From the IMG/VR virus record IMGVR_UViG_3300031519_000133, positions 1-31,704 of that record: 31,704 nucleotides of DNA. One strand, given 5' to 3'. Positions 1 through 28,143 of the stretch are shown here, in pieces. The stretch's first letter is position 1. Each line of letters begins with the position of its first letter. The DNA comes from a virus (taxonomy: Duplodnaviria > Caudoviricetes). Both the position numbers and the translations under genes were made by a program. The notes beneath the pieces are model-generated. The model was given only the letters and a program-made list of their open reading frames with translations, was not told the origin of the DNA and did not search any database.

Positions 1-257
1 TCATCTAAGCCTAAGATAAAATCTGGAAAATACTTATGATATTTATTATCGAGAGGATTAAAATATTTTATACAAAGGGATTCTGATGACCACCATACTA
101 TTTTAGTAGTCCTTTCGCAATACATGCAAAATTTCTTTTCCCAAGAAGATCGATAAATTATAGGTCCAGCTCCTTTATATTTAGTCGCTTCATTTAAAGG
201 GAAGTATCCCTGAAGAAATTTAGATTTTTTTGAAGGTTTGTTGTTTTTTATATTCAT
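1..257 (-). CDS. gp4: T4 gp4-like head completion nuclease (TnsA-N-like), 3' end runs off the window; missing from the ORF track
   Basis: Manual translation from ATG at 257: MNIKNNKPSKKSKFLQGYFPLNEATKYKGAGPIIYRSSWEKKFCMYCERTTKIVWWSSESLCIKYFNPLDNKYHKYFPDFILGLD. YRSSWE, WSSE and YFPDF are gp4 hallmarks. Confidence 0.9.
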   Translation of the reverse strand, partial: MNIKNNKPSKKSKFLQGYFPLNEATKYKGAGPIIYRSSWEKKFCMYCERTTKIVWWSSESLCIKYFNPLDNKYHKYFPDFILGLD

Positions 258-265
258 AAAAAATA

Positions 266-655
266 TTATTCCTCTTCACTCTTGTCTGGTTTTTCTTCTT
301 TATCTTCTTTTTTCTTAAATGGATTTGGCTTTTCAACACTAGGGTCATCTTCTAATTCTTTTCCTTTTTTTGTAGCTACGGCTACTTCTTTTTTAGAAAT
401 CTCTTCAGGTAACTCTAATACAGAAGGCGATTCGTTAGTGAATACTTTATCTCTTCCATAATCGTAAATAAATAAAAACTTTTTGTTTTTACTTACGTTA
501 ATAGTCTTATTTAAAGCATCCTCTTCAATATCATATAAATCCTTATTTATAGACGATTTCCAAATCTCCCACCATTCTGCATTTACGTCATAAACTCTAT
601 CAGTTTCTTCAGAATTTTCATTAAGCCATTCTGTGTATTTTTTTAATTTCTTCAT
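266..655 (-). CDS. Hypothetical protein with shared leader MKKLKKYTEWLNE and a highly charged C-terminus; candidate internal head protein
   Basis: ORF track; leader matches the window-wide motif; start overlaps the gp55 stop (ATGA). Confidence 0.6.
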   Translation of the reverse strand: MKKLKKYTEWLNENSEETDRVYDVNAEWWEIWKSSINKDLYDIEEDALNKTINVSKNKKFLFIYDYGRDKVFTNESPSVLELPEEISKKEVAVATKKGKELEDDPSVEKPNPFKKKEDKEEKPDKSEEE

Positions 656-1011
656 ATTGAATATATTCCTTCACTGTCACTACTAGATCCACCTTCTAGC
701 GATAAAGTTCCTTTATATTTTCCAGGATGTATTTTGTTCCATCCTTTGGCATATCCATTTTTAGCTACTTGAGTATAAAATGAAAATGCATTTTTAGTTT
801 TCCAAGGTTTAAATCTATCCCAATATTTGAATAAATCTAAAAGTGCAAACTGTATGCAATCTTCTTTATCTTGTGGATTGTTATAATATAACCTATTATT
901 AGCTCTTTCTGCTATCAAAATTAGCATATCTCTAGCTTTTATTGTTAGCTTCTTTTGCTCTAACGAAATACAAATCTCCTCGTATAATTCTTTATTTTTG
1001 ACATATGCCAT
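652..1011 (-). CDS. gp55: gp55-like late-transcription sigma factor (short, 119 aa)
   Basis: YVKNKEL N-terminus, 'EDCIQFALLDLFKYWDRFKP' and 'KNAFSFYTQ' match the gp55 family pattern (YVxNxE...FDP.K..NxFAYFTQ). Confidence 0.8.
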   Translation of the reverse strand: MAYVKNKELYEEICISLEQKKLTIKARDMLILIAERANNRLYYNNPQDKEDCIQFALLDLFKYWDRFKPWKTKNAFSFYTQVAKNGYAKGWNKIHPGKYKGTLSLEGGSSSDSEGIYSI

Positions 1012-1050
1012 AATTCTTTTACTTATTTTATGTAAAAACCTTAAGAATTA

Positions 1051-1143
1051 CTAACAGCTACAACAGCTACAGTTACATGAAGATTTACACTCACATAAGG
1101 TGCAATCACAAGATTCGTTTAGTTGAGTTTTTAAATTTTTCAT
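1051..1143 (-). CDS. Unannotated 30-aa Cys-rich metallothionein-like peptide, MKNLKTQLNESCDCTLCECKSSCNCSCCSC
   Basis: ATG at 1143-1141, 5 nt after the upstream stop; TAG at 1053-1051 followed by TAA; 9 Cys in the last 19 residues (CxC and CC); fills the apparent intergenic gap; starts with the shared ...LNE leader. Confidence 0.75.
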   Translation of the reverse strand: MKNLKTQLNESCDCTLCECKSSCNCSCCSC

Positions 1144-1148
1144 GCTGA

Positions 1149-2498
1149 TTATAAATTGTTTTCTGCTAAAATACATTCAAGTTCAGCTTTTTGTTCATTG
1201 ATTTTATCTAACAAAAATTTAGTAGCTTTAACTATTTTAGGATTGTTTTGATCCGCGTCATTTAATTTGTTTAGGTTTTCATTTAAAAACTTTATACGAG
1301 ATTCAATTTTATCGGTTTCTTTAGATATTTTTATAGTTTCGTTAGTTTCGTTTTCTAATAAACTAGAAACTGAATTAGTTATGTCATAGTTTATGAAGTC
1401 TTTAACTATTTGAATACCTTCGGATGAAGTTTCGGCTTCGATCAGTTCATTTTGTTTCATTGCATGATTAACCTTTTGTATATAAAGTTTATCACCGATT
1501 GTAAAAATATTTGCACATACACCTTCAAATAAATTAGAACTTATTCTATAGCCTAAATCAATTTCCTTGATTTTATGAGATTCTTTTATTGCTTGTTCAA
1601 TAAAAGCTATTTTATTAGTTTCATTCATTTTAACATAACCACCAGCAAATAGATGAGAATTAACATCTTCTGATTTAAGAATTTTGTTATTTAATTTAAT
1701 GACTGCCTCGTTTTCGTTAACTTCTATATCTAAAAATGATTTAGTATTTGGATATATTCGTATACCTTTAGCAGTAAATTTGCAATTCTCTGTGATTTTG
1801 TAGAGAGATATAAAATTATTAGATGGTAATTTATCACTAACCTTTAGAGATGAATCTGTATATTCTAACAGAATACCCGAAGATACGAAGCCATAAACAT
1901 TTTCAGATAAAACATCAATAGGTGAGTGTATTTTACTAATCGTGAAATTAGGATTTTCACCGCTATATTCACCTCTTTTTGTAATAGCATGTTCATGTAA
2001 TCGTTTAATCAGAGGAATCCATTTATGAGCTTCCATTTCATTAACTAAATCATTTACTTGATTATCATTCTTTGATATCTTTCTCAAAGTTTCAACTGCT
2101 GATTTGTAATATGATTTAGAATTACTAGATTCTAGATCATAAATAACCTGCTCAATTAAAATGGCTATCTCGTTTTCTTTCAAGAGCTTAGACGTCTCGT
2201 TGATGAATGTAGAAATTTGATCCATCCACTTATAAGAGCTTAGTTCATTAACTAGGCTATTTAATTTAGCTATTTTATATACTAAAATAGAGTTAGATTC
2301 AACTGAAGGTCTATCCGAGGATTTATTAAAATCTTCATTTATTTTTATTTTATCTTCGTTTATGGCTAACTCACAAAAAGATTTATAATATCGTTCTATT
2401 ATAATTTTGCTAGCATTATTTTTATCAAGATTCTCTAATAAGAATATTAGATCTTTCTTAATAGAAGCCGAATCTATTTTTTTGTTTAAAATTGACAT
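1149..2498 (-). CDS. Hypothetical 449-aa protein with C-terminal coiled coil; possibly virion or prohead-core related
   Basis: Long ORF with no catalytic motif recognised; many [ILV]NE tripeptides; downstream of a GATATATA site. Confidence 0.5.
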   Translation of the reverse strand: MSILNKKIDSASIKKDLIFLLENLDKNNASKIIIERYYKSFCELAINEDKIKINEDFNKSSDRPSVESNSILVYKIAKLNSLVNELSSYKWMDQISTFINETSKLLKENEIAILIEQVIYDLESSNSKSYYKSAVETLRKISKNDNQVNDLVNEMEAHKWIPLIKRLHEHAITKRGEYSGENPNFTISKIHSPIDVLSENVYGFVSSGILLEYTDSSLKVSDKLPSNNFISLYKITENCKFTAKGIRIYPNTKSFLDIEVNENEAVIKLNNKILKSEDVNSHLFAGGYVKMNETNKIAFIEQAIKESHKIKEIDLGYRISSNLFEGVCANIFTIGDKLYIQKVNHAMKQNELIEAETSSEGIQIVKDFINYDITNSVSSLLENETNETIKISKETDKIESRIKFLNENLNKLNDADQNNPKIVKATKFLLDKINEQKAELECILAENNL

Positions 2499-2523
2499 AT
2501 TTTATCTTTATTTGTTGTTTGTT

Positions 2524-2823
2524 TTATTTATTTGAGATTTCATCCTCTTCTAGGATTTCATTCTCTTTTGAGATTTCATCCTCTTTTAGGGTTTCATCTA
2601 TTTCAGGAATATTATTAACATCGCCAAAAATTTCAATAAGAACTTTAGACTGTCTTTCTTTATCAACTCCTATAATATTTAAGAATCTTTCAACTTCGGC
2701 TAAAGTTTTACCTTCGCTTGCTAATTTATTTACTAAAGGAAATAACGAACCTTGACCATAGTATGAGTATTGTCCAATTAGATTTTCGTTAACAAAATCC
2801 TTATACGATTTTAATTTCATCAT
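2524..2823 (-). CDS. Hypothetical protein with shared leader (M)MKLKSYKDFVNE and an acidic repeated tail
   Basis: ORF track; leader motif; GATATATA 11 nt upstream. Confidence 0.6.
   Translation of the reverse strand: MMKLKSYKDFVNENLIGQYSYYGQGSLFPLVNKLASEGKTLAEVERFLNIIGVDKERQSKVLIEIFGDVNNIPEIDETLKEDEISKENEILEEDEISNK
2531..2597. repeat. Two-copy direct repeat with a 36-nt period encoding ExL[KE]EDEIS
   Basis: tttgagatttcatcctcttctaggatttcat (2531-2561) vs tttgagatttcatcctcttttagggtttcat (2567-2597). Confidence 0.9.
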
Positions 2824-2834
2824 TATTTTTTTAT

Positions 2835-2842
2835 TATATATC
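2835..2842 (-). promoter_or_regulatory. Putative late promoter GATATATA
   Basis: Octamer recurs at gene boundaries; 11 nt upstream of the ATG at 2823. Confidence 0.65.
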
Positions 2843-2846
2843 TTAG

Positions 2847-3710
2847 TTAATATGTTCCACCTGAAGGAGGAAATTCACCTTTTACTGAAGTAGGCCAAAC
2901 CGGTCCTATAACTTGAGTATCGGATGAAGCTCCGGTTACGCCTGAAGCCGGTGGATCACCTATATTTCTACTTAATGCGGTTGATCCCATTACAAGAGGA
3001 GGTATGTATATATTAGAAACCATAGTTTCCATTCTAGCTCCAGCGAATAAGGTAGTGCCTTCTTTAAACACCGGTAAATGAGCCTGTACATCAATTGAAA
3101 ATGTCACTTTAAATTCCTTTCTATCGGTAAATCCGAATTCTATTGGCCTTTCATAAGACTGATCATCAGAGAATGTAGCTAAACAAGGTATTCTAATATA
3201 GGCAGTGTCTATTTGAAATATTTTATTTTTAAAAAAAGTTCTTATTACAGATTCTGTGCATTTTAATTGATCTAACATCGAATCCGTGTAAACTACAATA
3301 TCTAAGCTAAAAGTTATAGGCACCATAAAAGCTTCGCTATTATATGTATTAAGAGATCCATCATCTTCTTGTATTTGATGATTCATTCTAATGTATTTAT
3401 TAACAATAGATCCACCATCTACTGAAATGCTTGACAGATCTACTATACCTCTTGGTATACTATTATAAAAAGTTTCAGCTAATTTTCCTTCACTATCATA
3501 GTCTACGTTATTAAGGAAATTATTTTGTAAATACCTTTCTGTGCCTGTAGTGCTAAAATAAAAAGGAATATTGACTTTTTGTTTTTGTGAAACTTCAGTT
3601 CCTATTTGATTATACCAATATACATTGTCGTGTAGCGTAGCTAGTAAACCTATTAATATATTTCTAATAGTAACATCATCTTTATTAAAATGTAAATCGT
3701 AAACCGACAT
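2847..3710 (-). CDS. gp15: T4 gp15-like tail terminator / sheath stabilizer
   Basis: 'TIRNILIGLLATL', 'KVNIPFYF', 'IPRG' and 'VPITFSLDIVVYTDSMLDQLKCTESV' parallel gp15 motifs; size fits. Confidence 0.7.
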   Translation of the reverse strand: MSVYDLHFNKDDVTIRNILIGLLATLHDNVYWYNQIGTEVSQKQKVNIPFYFSTTGTERYLQNNFLNNVDYDSEGKLAETFYNSIPRGIVDLSSISVDGGSIVNKYIRMNHQIQEDDGSLNTYNSEAFMVPITFSLDIVVYTDSMLDQLKCTESVIRTFFKNKIFQIDTAYIRIPCLATFSDDQSYERPIEFGFTDRKEFKVTFSIDVQAHLPVFKEGTTLFAGARMETMVSNIYIPPLVMGSTALSRNIGDPPASGVTGASSDTQVIGPVWPTSVKGEFPPSGGTY

Positions 3711-3725
3711 AACTATGTTTTTTTC

Positions 3726-3733
3726 TATATATC
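3726..3733 (-). promoter_or_regulatory. Putative late promoter GATATATA
   Basis: 15 nt upstream of the gp15-like start, in a short intergenic gap. Confidence 0.65.
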
Positions 3734-3737
3734 AAAT

Positions 3738-5408
3738 TTATGATACATCCTCGATTATAATAGTGGAGAAACCTCCTTCTCTAATTGCTTCAACTCGTTT
3801 ATCAAATAATTCTAAAGGAAGTTCAGAGTGATTAATAACCCATGTATTTAAGTTATTCTCTTGAGTCGTTTCTTTAAGAATTTTTATAATTTCATAAATA
3901 CCAGAAGAATCTATTGATGAAAATATTTCATCTAAGAATAAAATATTAATTGAAGGATATCTCAACTTTAGCATTTTCAATAAAGCGATAATTATTATAA
4001 AATCTACTTTTTTTCTTTCACCAGTTGACATACTCTTTGGTCTAACCTCTTCGCCAATAGCCTTTATTATACAATCAAATTTTTCATCAAATTTTATTGT
4101 ATATGGAAGATGTATTTGATTTCCCATATTTTTAATTGATTGATTTAATGGTGGTAATATGGATTTCATAGCCATATTTTTTATACCATCCTCACCTAGT
4201 ATATTCTCTACTATCAATAAGAAATTGTCATTATTTTGATCTTTTATTTTTTTAGAATATCTATTTTTATTTTTATCTCGATTTTCTTCTATTAAATCTT
4301 TTAGATACTTTTCGTTATTTTCTTTAAGATTGTTTTGAAGTTTAACAACTTCACCTTTGTATTGATTTATTCGCATATTAGACCTAATAGAACTATCGTT
4401 TAATTCTTTTAGTTTAGTCTGGATTTTATCTAAAATATTTGAGGTCTGTTTTATTTTAGAATCTATTATTATTTTTTCTTCGGTTAGATCTAATTCCTTC
4501 TCAACCAAAGTTTCTTTTATTTTTTTATGCGAAGTTCCAGTTATATCAGAACTACATGTTGGACATTTTGAATTAGAATATAATTTCAATTTTTTATTAA
4601 TTTGAACTAATTCGCTATTAATCAAAGAAGATTCTCTTGATTTATTATCTAATACATCTTTTACTTCTATTCTTTTACTTTTTATTTTATCTAATAATAA
4701 TTCTATTGATTTCTTGCTTTCGTTTAATTCTTTTATTTTTTCTACGTACTCTTTTGCTAGTTTTATTTTATCAGACTCGTTAGTTTTTGCTAACTCTTTG
4801 ATTTTATGCTCAATAGATTCAATAGACTCTGATATTACTCGTAACTCATCGTTTATGGTTTTGATAGATATTTTTAATGATTTTCTTTCTTGCTTTACTC
4901 GGTCTCGCATTTGATTAACTATAGACAATCCAAATAATCTATCAATAATATTACGTTTATCTGAATTAGACATTGTTAAAAATGATCTAAAATCATTTAC
5001 TGATAATACTAAAATATTTTTGAATACTTGATATGGTATTTCATATATTTCTGTTTCTAGATAAGTTTGTACATTTGAATTACCTGAAGTGTCATAAGGC
5101 TCAGAGTCAATAATAACAGATAACAAACCTGGAGATATTCCTCGGGTTATCTCAATGTATTTGCCTTTAGATATCAATTTAATTCGACACCAAAGATTTT
5201 TATTTATTCTATTAACTAAATCTGATTTATTTTTATTGTCGACTTTACCGAACAAACTATATGTAATAACTTCAGATATTGTACTTTTTCCATTGCCGTT
5301 GCCGCCTAAAAGTAGATATAAACTAGGTTTATCTTTTTTGAAATTTATACTCTGTATCGTATTACCATAAGAGTTAAAATTTTTCCATTCAATCGATTGT
5401 ATATTCAT
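3738..5408 (-). CDS. gp46: gp46 / SbcC / Rad50-like recombination ATPase
   Basis: Walker A GGNGNGKST, coiled coils with CPTC zinc hook, signature MSTGE, Walker B LFLDEIFSSID, H-loop INH. Confidence 0.95.
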   Translation of the reverse strand: MNIQSIEWKNFNSYGNTIQSINFKKDKPSLYLLLGGNGNGKSTISEVITYSLFGKVDNKNKSDLVNRINKNLWCRIKLISKGKYIEITRGISPGLLSVIIDSEPYDTSGNSNVQTYLETEIYEIPYQVFKNILVLSVNDFRSFLTMSNSDKRNIIDRLFGLSIVNQMRDRVKQERKSLKISIKTINDELRVISESIESIEHKIKELAKTNESDKIKLAKEYVEKIKELNESKKSIELLLDKIKSKRIEVKDVLDNKSRESSLINSELVQINKKLKLYSNSKCPTCSSDITGTSHKKIKETLVEKELDLTEEKIIIDSKIKQTSNILDKIQTKLKELNDSSIRSNMRINQYKGEVVKLQNNLKENNEKYLKDLIEENRDKNKNRYSKKIKDQNNDNFLLIVENILGEDGIKNMAMKSILPPLNQSIKNMGNQIHLPYTIKFDEKFDCIIKAIGEEVRPKSMSTGERKKVDFIIIIALLKMLKLRYPSINILFLDEIFSSIDSSGIYEIIKILKETTQENNLNTWVINHSELPLELFDKRVEAIREGGFSTIIIEDVS

Positions 5409-16868: not shown

Positions 16869-17546
16869 TTATTTTTTTACGTAAGATAAGAATTTCTTAT
16901 GATATTTTTTTGGTATATGGTCGGATAACAGGTAATTTATAAGATCTTCTCTACTCATCCATTGTTGTCCAGCAGCATCATTAGCAGTAGAAGTAAACAT
17001 TCCAGCAGCATCTAATATGTCAAATACTTCATCTGGACTAACCGCATCATATGCTTCGGTTACTCGATTATATAATTGTTCATCAGGGCTCCATGTCCAA
17101 TCGTTAGAATCAAATCCTTTAATCTTTTTTTCTTTTTGGTATTCGTCTGATGAGATTTTGTTGGCCTTCGTTAGACCTTCGTTCAAAGAATTCTTAAACA
17201 GTCCGATTGATTCATTTATTGTATCATCTTTTTTATTTATGAATTCGTATACTCGTTTTCCGTATTTAGAAAGAGCCCAAACTTTATGTCCTCTATTATT
17301 AAAAGATTCAAAGAACTTAGAATTTCTTTTGAACCAGGTTTTTGTATCAGTACCTCTTCCAGTTTCTTCCATTAGTTTAGCTAAGAAGTTTTCCATCTGT
17401 TTTTCGGTAACAAACTTATTTCCTATGAACTTAAGAATTTCATTTCGTACTGGAGCTTTTTCGTTAACTCTAATTCTTCCGTAATCTCCATATTTTCTCT
17501 TTACCTGAGACCGGCCTTCGTTTAAGTTTTTAAATAATCCTTTCAT
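16869..17546 (-). CDS. Hypothetical protein with leader MKGLFKNLNE, repeated internally
   Basis: N-terminal MKGLFKNLNEG; internal INESIGLFKNSLNEG. Confidence 0.6.
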   Translation of the reverse strand: MKGLFKNLNEGRSQVKRKYGDYGRIRVNEKAPVRNEILKFIGNKFVTEKQMENFLAKLMEETGRGTDTKTWFKRNSKFFESFNNRGHKVWALSKYGKRVYEFINKKDDTINESIGLFKNSLNEGLTKANKISSDEYQKEKKIKGFDSNDWTWSPDEQLYNRVTEAYDAVSPDEVFDILDAAGMFTSTANDAAGQQWMSREDLINYLLSDHIPKKYHKKFLSYVKK

Positions 17547-17561
17547 TTTTTTATCTTTTTT

Positions 17562-17765
17562 TTATATTCCTAGTTCTTTATGTAGCACTTTCATGAAAGG
17601 TCCATAATTATTTGATCCGTATTGGTCTTTAAGAATTTTAGCTATTGCAATAGCGAAATCTGAATAAGATAGAGATTCGTCTATTTTATCGATCGATTTA
17701 AGTATCTCCTTACTCAAAGCATCAGAGTCTTTTGATTCGTTTAAGTTTTTAAATAAGCCTTTCAT
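17562..17765 (-). CDS. Hypothetical 67-aa protein with leader MKGLFKNLNE
   Basis: First 30 nt are 29/30 identical to those of the neighbouring gene. Confidence 0.65.
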   Translation of the reverse strand: MKGLFKNLNESKDSDALSKEILKSIDKIDESLSYSDFAIAIAKILKDQYGSNNYGPFMKVLHKELGI

Positions 17766-17783: not shown

Positions 17784-18146
17784 TTATACTGTTACTAAAC
17801 CTTTTTGGATTAGTTCATTTATGTCTTTTAAAGAAAACCCATAAGGTTCACGCATCCCTTTGTATTCTGCATAGACCCCGACACTTTTATCGCCATCCTG
17901 TTTATATTCAACTGAGTTATGATCTAATCTCAAAGTTCTACCTTTATTAAAGAAATCAACTGTATCGTTACTTGATTTATCAGTCCATTCAAAACTATGA
18001 TAATTTTTTGTTGACCCTAAACCAGAACCGAAATTATCTCTTATACCCTTTCTCCAAGTCTCTTTGACGAATTTTAAAGTATTAGGGAATTGTGAAAGCT
18101 GTTTTGCTTCATTTAAGAACTCATTAAAGTTTTGTAAATTTTTCAT
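17784..18146 (-). CDS. Hypothetical protein with leader MKNLQNFNEFLNE
   Basis: Leader motif; GATATATA 21 nt upstream. Confidence 0.65.
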   Translation of the reverse strand: MKNLQNFNEFLNEAKQLSQFPNTLKFVKETWRKGIRDNFGSGLGSTKNYHSFEWTDKSSNDTVDFFNKGRTLRLDHNSVEYKQDGDKSVGVYAEYKGMREPYGFSLKDINELIQKGLVTV

Positions 18147-23944: not shown

Positions 23945-24277
23945 TTACTTAATCTTTTTGTACTTATATTTACCATTACGTATTTGATTCCAAAACCTAG
24001 TACCATAAGTACCTTCATTAGTTTCTTTCTTTAATAATTTTTTTGCTTTCTTTTTTACATAACTACCAGCCTTTCCTAATAAAGTTTTCTCGTCGGCAAA
24101 TAACCTAAAAACTTTTTTGGGAACGTCTTCATACTGATAAACCGATCCATCACGAAATTCAATCACAAGAATTTCAGTTTTATCGTCATATTTTATATCT
24201 GTCAAATGACTGGATTCTATTTCTTTATTCCATTTTTTTTCTAATAAAAAATCTTCGTATTTTAAAAACTCGTGCAT
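23945..24277 (-). CDS. KTSC-domain protein with leader MHEFLKYEDFLLE
   Basis: 'ESSHLTDIKYD...LVIEFRDGSVYQYEDVP' is the KTSC pattern. Confidence 0.8.
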   Translation of the reverse strand: MHEFLKYEDFLLEKKWNKEIESSHLTDIKYDDKTEILVIEFRDGSVYQYEDVPKKVFRLFADEKTLLGKAGSYVKKKAKKLLKKETNEGTYGTRFWNQIRNGKYKYKKIK

Positions 24278-24306
24278 TTAATAGTTTGTATATTTTATAT
24301 GATGTA

Positions 24307-24654
24307 TTATGACTTTTTATTCTTATCGATCCATGTTCTAAAAATCTTCATTGCATCTCGCATCCCTTGAGTTTGATGTTTATGTAATTTAGCTCGAGTT
24401 TCCATTGTTGTTGCTATAGACATAGCCCATACATTTTCATCTTGCTTTAACAGCTTATCTAGCTCTTTTATTGTAAATTCAGCCTTTTCTTTATTTGCAT
24501 ATCCAGTACCTTTAATAGCATCTTTTCCTCCTTTTGAGTATAGACCTATGTCTGGTGGATCTGATTTATAATCTTTCTTTTTTCTCGTATGTCCAACCGT
24601 AGGTTTCTTTTTAGCTTCGTTTAAAAAGTCCTCGTAAGTTATTAAATTTTTCAT
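24307..24654 (-). CDS. Basic hypothetical protein with leader MKNLITYEDFLNE
   Basis: Leader motif; body (IKGTGY...A.TMETRAK) has no assignable function. Confidence 0.65.
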   Translation of the reverse strand: MKNLITYEDFLNEAKKKPTVGHTRKKKDYKSDPPDIGLYSKGGKDAIKGTGYANKEKAEFTIKELDKLLKQDENVWAMSIATTMETRAKLHKHQTQGMRDAMKIFRTWIDKNKKS

Positions 24655-24671
24655 TTTTTATTTATCTTTTA

Positions 24672-25010
24672 TTATGGTTTAGGACCATCTCCTTTTAACC
24701 ACTTAGCAACATCGGAGTCTGATGTTTTATAAGCCTTTCTTTTATCTATGAATGCATTTAATCGAGCATAACCCCATGCATTTAATGCAGCCGGTTTACC
24801 TAATTTTTTTATTTCAGGCCTAACAGCTCCCCAATTAGTTTGAGCAGCCCCGTAACCTCTTTTAAAAAGAATCATAAAAGCATATTTCAAATCTTCTATA
24901 TTAGATGTACCCATAGCTTTTTGATTTTTAGTATCTTTAGCTAAATCTAAAATCCTATCATCAACTTTTGATTCTAATAAAAAGTCTTCGTATTTTAAAA
25001 ACTTATTCAT
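24672..25010 (-). CDS. DUF5824-like protein with leader MNKFLKYEDFLLE
   Basis: 'FKRGYGAA...RP...AWGYARLNAF' resembles DUF5824 (RG.AA...RP...WGYARV.SF) as recalled. Confidence 0.55.
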   Translation of the reverse strand: MNKFLKYEDFLLESKVDDRILDLAKDTKNQKAMGTSNIEDLKYAFMILFKRGYGAAQTNWGAVRPEIKKLGKPAALNAWGYARLNAFIDKRKAYKTSDSDVAKWLKGDGPKP

Positions 25011-25027
25011 TTAGTAATTTGTTTATT

Positions 25028-25984
25028 TTAATTCCATCCACCAGAGTAATAACTAGATCCTAATTGAACGTCTTTAAATTTGAAAGATTTACCATTAAAC
25101 TTAACATCAACATCATAATAGTAGTATGTACTAAACGAAGAAGCTACAACTGAACTGTGATCAGATTTAGTCATCTTAGTTTTAGCTGTAAACTTTTTCC
25201 AAACATCCCTTCCGGCTTGTCCTTCCGTCATCAATTCTTTCATATAGGCAAATAATTCAGGCATTCGCCCTATATTAGCAGCCACATTTGCTTCGTCTGA
25301 ATTTTTATCATGCCAAATACCAACCTCTCTATTTATTGCATCTTTGAATAATTTATCGTCTATTCCTTTGATAACCCTTTCAAATTTCTTTTTTGTCGAT
25401 TTTTGTAAAAATGCCCTTTCTTCCTGTGGCAAATCAGCAACTGTAATACCATATTCTCTTAATTTACGAGCATCCGATGACATCATATAATAATTAAACG
25501 GATAAGTTCCTTTTTCGAACCGTTCTCTGATATACAAAGCCTGGCCTAAATAATCATGTGGATCTTCGTTTCGGTCAGGTAGTTGTGGCCATTTACCAAA
25601 AGCTTTCAAAAACTCCTTGATGAACTTCTTATTTTTCGATTTACCTTTAAATCCAGTCATTGATAATATCACCGTCTTAAATTCATCATATAGGTCATCA
25701 AAACCTGGTAGATTCGGCAGATCTGCAAACTTCACAGTCGTATCATCCTTAAGCTTCATATCATATCTAAAAGCTGAAACTAACGTTTCTTTATCGTATT
25801 TGTTTTCTTTTGACGAATTCCTAGGAAAATTTTTCTTAGTTACAATTTTATTAGCAAATTTTTCTAATGTAGTATATGTCGGTCGGTATCTATAGGACTT
25901 ATCACCCGGACCGCGAAATTTCTTCTTTGCTTCAGTTAAAGAAGACTCGTTAAGATATTGCTCGTAAGTTTTTAATTTCTTCAT
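25028..25984 (-). CDS. Basic hypothetical protein (318 aa) with leader MKKLKTYEQYLNE
   Basis: Leader motif followed by a second LTE site; first gene after the GATATATA at 26036. Confidence 0.65.
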   Translation of the reverse strand: MKKLKTYEQYLNESSLTEAKKKFRGPGDKSYRYRPTYTTLEKFANKIVTKKNFPRNSSKENKYDKETLVSAFRYDMKLKDDTTVKFADLPNLPGFDDLYDEFKTVILSMTGFKGKSKNKKFIKEFLKAFGKWPQLPDRNEDPHDYLGQALYIRERFEKGTYPFNYYMMSSDARKLREYGITVADLPQEERAFLQKSTKKKFERVIKGIDDKLFKDAINREVGIWHDKNSDEANVAANIGRMPELFAYMKELMTEGQAGRDVWKKFTAKTKMTKSDHSSVVASSFSTYYYYDVDVKFNGKSFKFKDVQLGSSYYSGGWN

Positions 25985-26820: not shown

Positions 26821-27285
26821 CTATTTTATATTTTTTTTAACAAAACGTTCTATCCAACCTTTTAGCTCCTTAGCTGCTGGATTAATATGAGACGGCTCAG
26901 TTAAAGGACCAGCTTTCCATTCATCCCAATATCTAGCAATCTTTCCGAGTGCATTAGCTATTTCATCATAGTTCATTGCCTCTATCCAACCAGCTCCCTC
27001 GTTAACGGATTCTTTAGCCATCATAATAGACAGACTATCAGATATATGTTTATTAATAATTTCTTCAGTTTTCTTGTAGTCTTTTTTATCTACATTAATA
27101 ACAGATAAAGTCATAGATAATCTATTAATTTTATATTTAATCTTCGCTCCATCTAAATCTTTTGTTAAGGAATCTAGACCTTTAATAGCCGCTTCGCCGT
27201 CAGTTTTTATACCGAAGGTACTTTCATTAACAGATTCAATTTTTCCTTCATTTAGAAATTCATCAAAATTCTTTAAATTTTTCAT
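26821..27285 (-). CDS. Hypothetical protein with leader MKNLKNFDEFLNE and two internal ESVNE motifs
   Basis: Leader motif; GATATATA 23 nt upstream. Confidence 0.65.
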   Translation of the reverse strand: MKNLKNFDEFLNEGKIESVNESTFGIKTDGEAAIKGLDSLTKDLDGAKIKYKINRLSMTLSVINVDKKDYKKTEEIINKHISDSLSIMMAKESVNEGAGWIEAMNYDEIANALGKIARYWDEWKAGPLTEPSHINPAAKELKGWIERFVKKNIK

Positions 27286-27318: not shown

Positions 27319-28143
27319 TTAAGCTTCTTGAACTTGTTTGTTTAAACTCCAGGCCCTAGCAAGTCTGGTTAGTCCTATTCCTCCACCAAATCTAGGAAAG
27401 AAATCAAATTTTAAAAAATCTTCTAATTCCTTTTCAACTCGATCTTTTCCGAATAGTTCGAATAATTTGGCTGAATAAGTCTCATCCATTATAGAATAAA
27501 AAATAGATTTCATCTCTTCTTTGCTACAAGATCTTTCTGCGGATCCTATAGTTTCTTGTCCAAATAAAATAACATCTGCTTTATTGAAAGTTCCGTCTTG
27601 ATTCTTTTTCATATTCCAAAACGGAGAAGTTCTTTCAGGGAATTTAGTCAAAAATACATTATCACCTCTTTCTTTCCAAAGTCTAGATTCGTGTTCATCT
27701 TCTATCGTATCTATTCCTCCATACTCTTCACATACCTCATCGTATATACAATCAAAGCCCTTTCCAAAACCTAAATATTCGCAAAGTTCTTTTTCAAGTT
27801 CTATAAGCGCTTCGAAAGATCCTTTTGCCTCGAATTCGAACATTGGAAATATTTTTTCATGTCGACCAGGAATTGGATCTTTTTCATCTCGATAAGAAGT
27901 TGAAATACAAAAACATCCATCCCAATCAGGATTTTTTAGAAGTTCATATTCTAACCACATTTGGCCGGTTTGAGGTAATGGCCAGCGTAATCCATTGTAT
28001 TCGAAAGTTGCTATTGAGAAAGGATTTTCGCAAGCTGCGAGAATTGAAAGTCTTGATTGAGTTGGTACCTCGATGTAATTTTTAGACAAAAAAAATTTGC
28101 GAAGTTTTTGAACTACTTCATTATAAACTGTTGTGTTTTCCAT
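27319..28143 (-). CDS. Class IIb (Asp/Asn/Lys) aminoacyl-tRNA synthetase catalytic-domain paralog lacking the anticodon domain
   Basis: Motif 1 LRKFFLSKNYIEVPT, LPQTGQMWLE, motif 2 SYRDE...GRH..FPMFEFE, ETIGSAER, motif 3 GGGIGLTRL; 274 aa only. Confidence 0.85.
   Translation of the reverse strand: MENTTVYNEVVQKLRKFFLSKNYIEVPTQSRLSILAACENPFSIATFEYNGLRWPLPQTGQMWLEYELLKNPDWDGCFCISTSYRDEKDPIPGRHEKIFPMFEFEAKGSFEALIELEKELCEYLGFGKGFDCIYDEVCEEYGGIDTIEDEHESRLWKERGDNVFLTKFPERTSPFWNMKKNQDGTFNKADVILFGQETIGSAERSCSKEEMKSIFYSIMDETYSAKLFELFGKDRVEKELEDFLKFDFFPRFGGGIGLTRLARAWSLNKQVQEA

Follow-up and report, generated by a model that had tools for sequence, protein, structure and literature searches.

We report a 30-codon open reading frame (ORF) in an uncultured marine phage that joins a nine-cysteine core to a leader-like N-terminus. 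It lies in a 31.7-kb contig of 29% G+C, hereafter the window (the whole stretch of 31,704 nucleotides that was analysed); its genes, T4-like replication and late genes among them, are nearly all encoded on the minus strand. The core belongs to a family of metallothionein-like peptides, about 20 residues long, that gene callers have missed; the family is common among abundant Bacteroidota of the ocean and present in at least six unrelated phage gene neighbourhoods. The explanation that we favour, at roughly an even chance of being right, is that the core, likely a metal-thiolate cluster like that of a one-domain metallothionein, was captured into a head-cargo slot and acts mainly in the infected cell. 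If a chain of this length proves able to hold three metal ions in a cluster, the family would be an overlooked metal sink in marine microbes and viruses.

A nine-cysteine ORF upstream of the late sigma gene

The original prediction had placed a hidden 30-aa ORF in the gap between a 449-aa gene and a gp55-like gene. It is present there, in the following arrangement:

652..1011, minus strand: late sigma factor gp55-like gene (PHROG 234, E 1.2e-8), downstream anchor of the slot
1051..1143, minus strand: leader plus nine-cysteine peptide gene, ATG to TAG, 30 codons, stop TAG at 1051-1053
1054..1110, minus strand: 19-residue core, C-x-C-x2-C-x-C-x3-C-x-C-x-C-C-x-C, the family signature, followed by the stop
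1114..1143, minus strand: 10-residue leader-like N-terminus, ending in L-N-E (a predicted prohead-protease site), without aromatic pair
1144..1176, minus strand: 5-nt spacer and alternative in-frame ATG, the latter at 1176 inside the 449-aa gene
1149..2498, minus strand: 449-aa gene, upstream anchor of the slot; the peptide ORF starts 5 nt after its stop

Minus-strand translation of 1051-1143 reads MKNLKTQLNESCDCTLCECKSSCNCSCCSC, 30 aa with all 9 Cys within the last 19 residues; the plus strand of the same interval is not open (four stops). The gap from the end of the peptide gene to the late-sigma gene is 39 nt. The best 20-residue window of the whole stretch, in any frame, is that of the ORF, with 9 Cys; once the ORF is excluded, the best value elsewhere is 4, and 200 third-order Markov copies of the window gave a maximum of 6. 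The nine-cysteine ORF is real, far above chance. A cut after LNE had also been predicted to release a 20-mer with 9 Cys, which agrees with the sequence; the predicted product has a mass of 2082 Da.

The ORF is not an assembly artefact, because a contig from a different study (X2) spans 935-1185 with 0 differences to the window, and partial coverage of the ORF by the runs X3, X4 and X5 showed 0, 1 and 0 differences, respectively, all at low depth. The ORF lies outside what runs X6 to X8 cover, and X1 is possibly the run from which the window itself comes. A low-complexity artefact was excluded, as the ORF possesses a start (ATG) and a stop and its residues are of the family type; a fusion to the 449-aa protein by frameshift was also rejected, inspection by eye having shown no slippery heptamer at the end of the 449-aa gene. 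The runs that match the window DNA are brine and seawater metagenomes; no RNA dataset is among those listed.

Gene starts in the window are A-rich and without Shine-Dalgarno sequence, and 27 of 38 genes have an A at −3; an A at this position is described as a positive determinant in Bacteroidetes, and starts of this kind would fit a Bacteroidota host (PMC6847099). The base at −3 is A for the start at 1143 and T for the one at 1176. The latter would yield a 41-aa product, which, given the weaker start context, is likely not used.

Both the 30-aa and the 41-aa products are missing from about 15 billion called proteins, among which a control look-up found 4 of 4 other window proteins. The peptide gave 0 matches by phmmer against 1.84 billion protein representatives, and the 41-aa form gave 0 in a word search. 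Against cultured and deposited phages, tblastn gave 0 matches for the peptide and 0 for one family member. A search of the ESM Atlas returned only unnamed clusters, under 0.8, and Pfam, PHROGs and PDB held no useful match for the peptide.

One putative expression signal was considered:

2835..2842, minus strand: GATATATA, tentative late-promoter motif upstream of a 99-aa gene

The gene run behind this copy is 99 aa, 449 aa, peptide, sigma. The motif occurs 8 times on the minus strand of the window (2835, 3726, 12192, 18168, 19571, 26036, 27309 and 28150), each time (8/8) on the coding strand near a gene start, the total being not above chance; it was associated with 11 of 105 leader genes (see below) versus 39 of 991 others. 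We put it forward, tentatively, as a candidate late promoter of the window's phage lineage. No minus-strand terminator-like site was found in 200-4000, and a sigma-70 promoter scan gave matches not above chance. Translation of the peptide would start at the 1143 ATG of a late transcript and be coupled to the 449-aa gene.

A family of nine-cysteine micropeptides in marine Bacteroidota and their phages

A DNA pattern made of the nine-Cys spacing and the stop gave 120 viral loci in 13 of the 64 parts of the collection (about 620 estimated overall). Sixty-six were dropped, mostly poly-Cys antisense repeats, and 54 were clean small ORFs of 20-23 aa ending at the last Cys. A narrower pattern, run over one genome per species, gave 39 loci. 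Four were set aside (three repeats and one different archaeal peptide) and 35 were family members, 34 of them in Flavobacteriales, Cytophagales and other Bacteroidota, amid housekeeping genes, the remaining one on a phage-type contig in a bin. One member without ATG start and one 36 aa long were the exceptions to the family format. Carriers are nearly all marine Bacteroidota and their phages. The viral ORFs sit in gaps, in the same direction as their neighbours, and the genes around them, in no fewer than six unrelated settings, include phage markers (major head protein and clamp loader, terminase and GroES, primase, tail tube, exonuclease, dCMP deaminase).

All 9 Cys are invariant in 57 aligned members, the spacing being the selection criterion. 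Since the pattern itself fixes the cysteines, selection was tested on a spacing-independent set, chosen via a 163-aa gene downstream of one member (78 usable loci). The ORF lies directly upstream of this gene in 32 of the 78 loci, in 13 distinct DNA versions, where 116 of 117 Cys positions are retained and the codons toggle between TGT and TGC (pS 0.50, pN 0.13, pN/pS 0.27); in the other 46 it is missing at that position, mostly with a clean join. In this set the cysteines are the most conserved positions and are under purifying selection. The family ORF is a coding, selected, mobile accessory gene with cassette-like gain and loss among phages. The metallothionein-like CxC/CC spacing that had been noticed thus belongs to a real, conserved small gene with selected cysteines. 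The conserved cysteines with synonymous variation that had been proposed as a check are found in the family elsewhere, not in the syntenic gap, where no Cys-rich ORF was present at any of 80 late-sigma loci.

The window core keeps all nine Cys and is among the most diverged, as only 1 of 95 members scores lower. Its non-Cys residues nevertheless beat 19,957 of 20,000 random fills (43 score as high), and at least 6 of its 10 non-Cys positions differ from every known member. In the window peptide the first Cys is preceded by 11 residues, compared with 1-3 in 93 of the 95 others. The 95 family peptides together contain 1 Tyr, 0 Phe, 0 Trp and 1 His. The family is unannotated and belongs to no modelled family, and a search of the open-licence literature found no description of it; what is new in the window is the leader-type N-terminus on the core. 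It had been claimed that no phage metallothionein of this kind was described. This stands for the present family, but metallothioneins are mentioned among the auxiliary genes of fumarole and soil viruses (PMC13317609, PMC12917443); in the parts of these papers available to us the mentions are at annotation level, with no 20-30-aa nine-Cys family and no leader.

Several loci deserve mention on their own. The 36-aa member (L125, 2504-2611, minus strand) has a duplicated N-terminal Cys block and 13 Cys. In the neighbour-chosen set, a single member (L412, just upstream of 3001) has Cys replaced by His at one ligand position, as a metal ligand swap would look. At L116, L127 and L140 the gene upstream of the nine-Cys ORF encodes a 208-424-aa protein that starts M-C-x-C-G-C-N-T-C and continues to an L-N-E site, a predicted Cys-rich propeptide ahead of a protease cut. 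An inverted-repeat element (about 25 nt, around 'ttcatagcc') is conserved between the peptide gene and a dehydrogenase gene, directly downstream of the nine-Cys ORF, at L083, L101, L110, L119, L129, L136, L147, L151 and others; it is possibly an RNA structure or an operator. Finally, an archaeal bin (L225, about 3001-3100) carries a different Cys-rich small ORF between cysteine desulfurase and DUF1858/NifU-like genes, near an ArsR-type regulator.

The slot and its relatives

The locus is syntenic with its closest relatives. Orthologues of the 449-aa protein, 30-47% identical, were found by local tblastn in 29 of the 30 closest late-sigma loci; Pfam and PHROG gave no match for this protein, and a back-translated search found no relatives where local tblastn did. 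For the late-sigma protein, the closest deposited relatives (23 records, all below 60% identity) come from uncultured jumbo phages, from Lak phages of Prevotella, and from PAU and Chryseobacterium phages. Among 17 distinct relatives, 9 carry a full-leader gene in the slot, immediately after the 449-aa orthologue and ahead of the sigma gene; in the other 8 the slot contains no separate gene. The small domain usual in the slot (about 60 aa) is missing from the window. Nor was the core pattern found in whole related contigs (0 of 35 with the exact pattern, 0 of 24 with 2 mismatches; 52 distinct contigs, none 90% complete), and there was no such Cys-rich ORF in about 790 kb of five relatives. The simplest history would be an exchange in which the body of the cargo gene in the slot gave way to the core.

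The usual slot domain has no start codon in L008, L009 and L018 (nor in L010, L011, L019 and L020), about 217 nt before the late-sigma gene; in loci of the L008 type it follows, in another frame, a nine-A run that ends a 468-aa gene. L023 to L030 have it fused in frame, and in L003, L005, L014 and L021 it forms a leader gene of its own. The nine-A run is a candidate site of programmed frameshift or slippage that would give two protein forms.

A shortened cargo leader on the peptide

Leaders were collected from the window and five related contigs, giving 105 full-leader genes against 990 other ORFs. The full leader of the lineage is aromatic-x-x-aromatic-L/I/V-x-E, usually ending at residue 13; its aromatics, at −6 and −3, align with the ten-residue T4 capsid-targeting sequence at both aromatic positions. 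Related contigs carry 5 to 32 full-leader genes each, in tandem arrays. As a set of internal cargo, this is much larger than T4's. The leader genes of the window, apart from the peptide gene, are:

266-655, 2524-2823, 17784-18146, 23945-25984, 26821-27285, minus strand: eight full-leader genes, with a T4-like leader
16869..17765, minus strand: two genes, 225 aa and 67 aa, the only other 10-residue leaders in the window

The first five residues of the peptide are shared, as opening residues, by 6 full-leader genes out of 105 and by none of the 990 other ORFs, and L8-N9-E10 followed by S is the commonest cut site among the lineage's leaders. With a two-block leader profile the peptide scores 10.0, above 988 of the 990 other ORFs and below all 105 full leaders (lowest 12.1). 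Because the aromatic pair defined the 105 training leaders, its invariance is partly circular; it is present in 83 of 101 ORFs with an early L/I/V-N-E. On these sequence grounds the N-terminus is taken to derive from the T4-like capsid-targeting leader of the lineage, and it looks like a full leader that has lost three codons and both aromatics. The cargo leader of the original prediction is therefore upheld as to kinship and the L-x-E end, but in a 10-residue form that lacks the two aromatics of the 13-residue leader.

The T4 IPI-III sequence has, like the peptide leader, ten residues, a start M-K and an end L/I-x-E; residues 4 and 7 are reported to carry targeting and residues 8 and 10 processing (PMC9026906). 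T4 IPI-III have an aromatic at both targeting positions (Y, F in IPII and IPIII; F, F in IPI; NC_000866), unlike the peptide, which has L and Q. The 10-residue leaders of the 225-aa and 67-aa genes have L at 4 and N at 7, to be compared with L and the amide Q in the peptide, and one body of this pair bears a 10-residue leader in the window and a full leader in a related contig (L472). The major head protein and orthologues of the 225-aa gene likewise start with a short stretch that ends in L/I-N-E and lacks aromatics; there it may be no more than a cut site. The 10-residue leader is predicted to be cuttable but is probably poor at head targeting.

Leader-fused nine-Cys copies were looked for elsewhere with patterns that require exact spacing and particular codons, so that rare copies can be missed: none was found among 7, 8 and 68 viral matches, and the only one among 96 metagenome matches was the window's own record. 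None of the 95 other distinct family peptides carries a leader. The window copy thus offers a natural experiment on cargo gain by T4-like phages, with the leader captured, the cut site kept and the aromatics lost, and makes the rules of head-targeting sequences in T4-like phages of Bacteroidota testable.

These data bear on a second reading, which we consider rather unlikely, namely that the short leader works: the peptide would be loaded into the prohead and cut after E10 by a gp21-type protease, leaving in the virion a 20-mer that acts as a metal or thiol reservoir, protecting head contents or being injected into the next host. The length of 10 and the processing residues L8 and E10 match the T4 sequence, the peptide gene occupies a leader-gene slot, and a gp21-type protease (PF03420, over cut-off) is encoded in 4 of 4 related contigs, the window's own contig stopping short of the head genes. 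Short leaders may indeed work in the window's phage, because the same body has a full leader in L472 and a 10-residue one here, and the small size of the product would suit passage through the portal. Against it, the aromatic targeting residues are missing, and the aromatic-less L-x-E of the major head protein and of the 225-aa family indicates that the motif can be a cut site alone. Targeted pattern scans found the fusion in the window's phage only, and so give no sign that selection keeps it. Finally, the 20-200 tagged proteins reported per T4 head would make a small reservoir (PMC9026906).

Its fuller version, a head-loading tag on a 19-residue metal-cluster peptide, i.e. a prohead-clipped virion metallothionein bringing Zn/Cu or thiols into the next host, made from a host micro-gene recruited by leader capture, seems slightly less probable again. 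If the peptide is packaged, it would be a metal-carrying virion cargo, of a kind not found in the open-licence literature searched; the account of T4-type internal proteins in the available part of PMC9026906 names no metallothionein-type cargo. Virion packaging as the purpose of the family, as first envisaged, is not borne out, given 0 of 95 other members with a leader and no aromatics at the T4 targeting positions of the window leader.

Likeness to metallothioneins

The peptide has 9 Cys in 30 residues, all 9 within the 19 of the core, arranged as four CxC pairs and one CC; it has no aromatic residue and no signal peptide, and its Cys number is odd. Published sequence criteria for metallothioneins are Cys in CC/CxC motifs, few aromatics and a short N-terminus, with domains usually of about 30 aa (PMC13168519). 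A lone nine-Cys domain is reported to work in ticks (the one-domain MT1), and nine-Cys domains to bind 3 Zn/Cd or 4, 6 or 10 Cu(I) (PMC13168519, PMC13107397). The vertebrate beta-domain (M3Cys9) and tick MT1 resemble the peptide in having nine Cys in CxC/CC, no aromatics and a short N-terminus. They differ in length (about 30 residues versus the 19-residue core), and the core comes from bacteria and phages, without significant profile or PDB match. The best match to Pfam metallothionein models was PF01439, with E 0.54, in 1 of 57 members; NCBIfam metallothionein models had 0 matches in the 57, and the best PDB match was 2KAK, with E 5.7. These comparisons reveal no detectable descent from known metallothioneins, and point to likeness, not to shown descent. 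An AlphaFold2 model had a pTM of 0.23 and no secondary structure.

The nine-Cys family is presumably less than half the length of bacterial metallothioneins, going by SmtA and MymT. Like SmtA/BmtA, Pseudomonas MT and MymT it consists of small Cys-rich bacterial peptides, and like the cellular copies of the family Pseudomonas MT is described as having no adjoining metal regulator; it differs in using Cys9His clusters, the 95 family peptides containing a single His (PMC7387436). Around the cellular copies (49 of 75 neighbour clusters scanned) there was no shared metal regulator or metal transporter. Common neighbours there were glutamine synthetase, Na/Ca exchanger and pirin genes, with one HupE/UreJ gene.

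Metal-thiolate binding would be expected rather than disulfides, because the nine Cys stand in CxC/CC, aromatics and signal peptide are absent and the Cys count is odd. The nine thiolates would then hold about 3 Zn/Cd(II) or 4-6 Cu(I) per peptide. From sequence features, we regard metal binding as probable if the gene is translated, and translation as very probable.

We judge quite improbable a third reading, in which the cysteines have a different chemical role (a redox buffer of thiol/disulfide or persulfide type, an iron-sulfur carrier or the precursor of a modified peptide) and metal binding is incidental. It would agree with the lack of homology to known metallothioneins, with the lack of a shared metal regulator or transporter at cellular loci, with the commonest phage neighbour, an FAD-type dehydrogenase gene (16 of 63 loci), and with a methionine sulfoxide reductase near 8 of 35 cellular loci. 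However, nine Cys cannot all pair and the peptide has no signal peptide, the cytoplasm being a reducing compartment. No modifying enzyme recurs beside the gene among the neighbours scanned, and the leaderless members, with their 1-3 residues before the first Cys, leave no room for a precursor leader.

Proposed role

We return to the favoured reading, a likely metal-thiolate cluster that acts mainly in the infected cell. The core would have been substituted for the body of the slot's leader gene, which relatives retain, and the shortened leader would have stayed, with its predicted cut site kept and its head targeting probably poor. The job of the family would lie in the cell, because the 95 other family peptides do without leader; like these leaderless relatives, the peptide would be a metal and thiol buffer in the infected cell during phage multiplication, any packaging being partial or incidental. 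The family itself may be an auxiliary gene that phages acquire for buffering metals or thiols.

Least probable of all, if by little, is a decaying passenger, a family gene drifting behind a broken leader with little or no function: it would account for a core more diverged than all but one of 95, a leader three codons short, the absence of the core from the related contigs (all incomplete) and the 46 of 78 neighbour-defined phage loci without the ORF, but nine Cys, start, frame and stop after the last Cys are intact despite at least 6 of 10 non-Cys positions unlike every known member, and the ORF is unchanged in the runs of other studies (X3 to X5 being partial and of low depth, with one difference in X4).

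Two further roles had been suggested for the peptide. Thiolates do not bind Mg2+, which most nucleases use. For this reason, and because 20-200 tagged proteins per T4 head (PMC9026906) would amount to at most some hundreds of ions, starvation of host nucleases is unlikely. Nothing found here speaks for delivery of Zn to primase or gp46.

As a minor observation from elsewhere in the window, 27319-28143 (minus strand) encodes a 274-aa protein whose sequence, by eye, looks like a class II (Asn/Asp-type) aminoacyl-tRNA synthetase catalytic domain.
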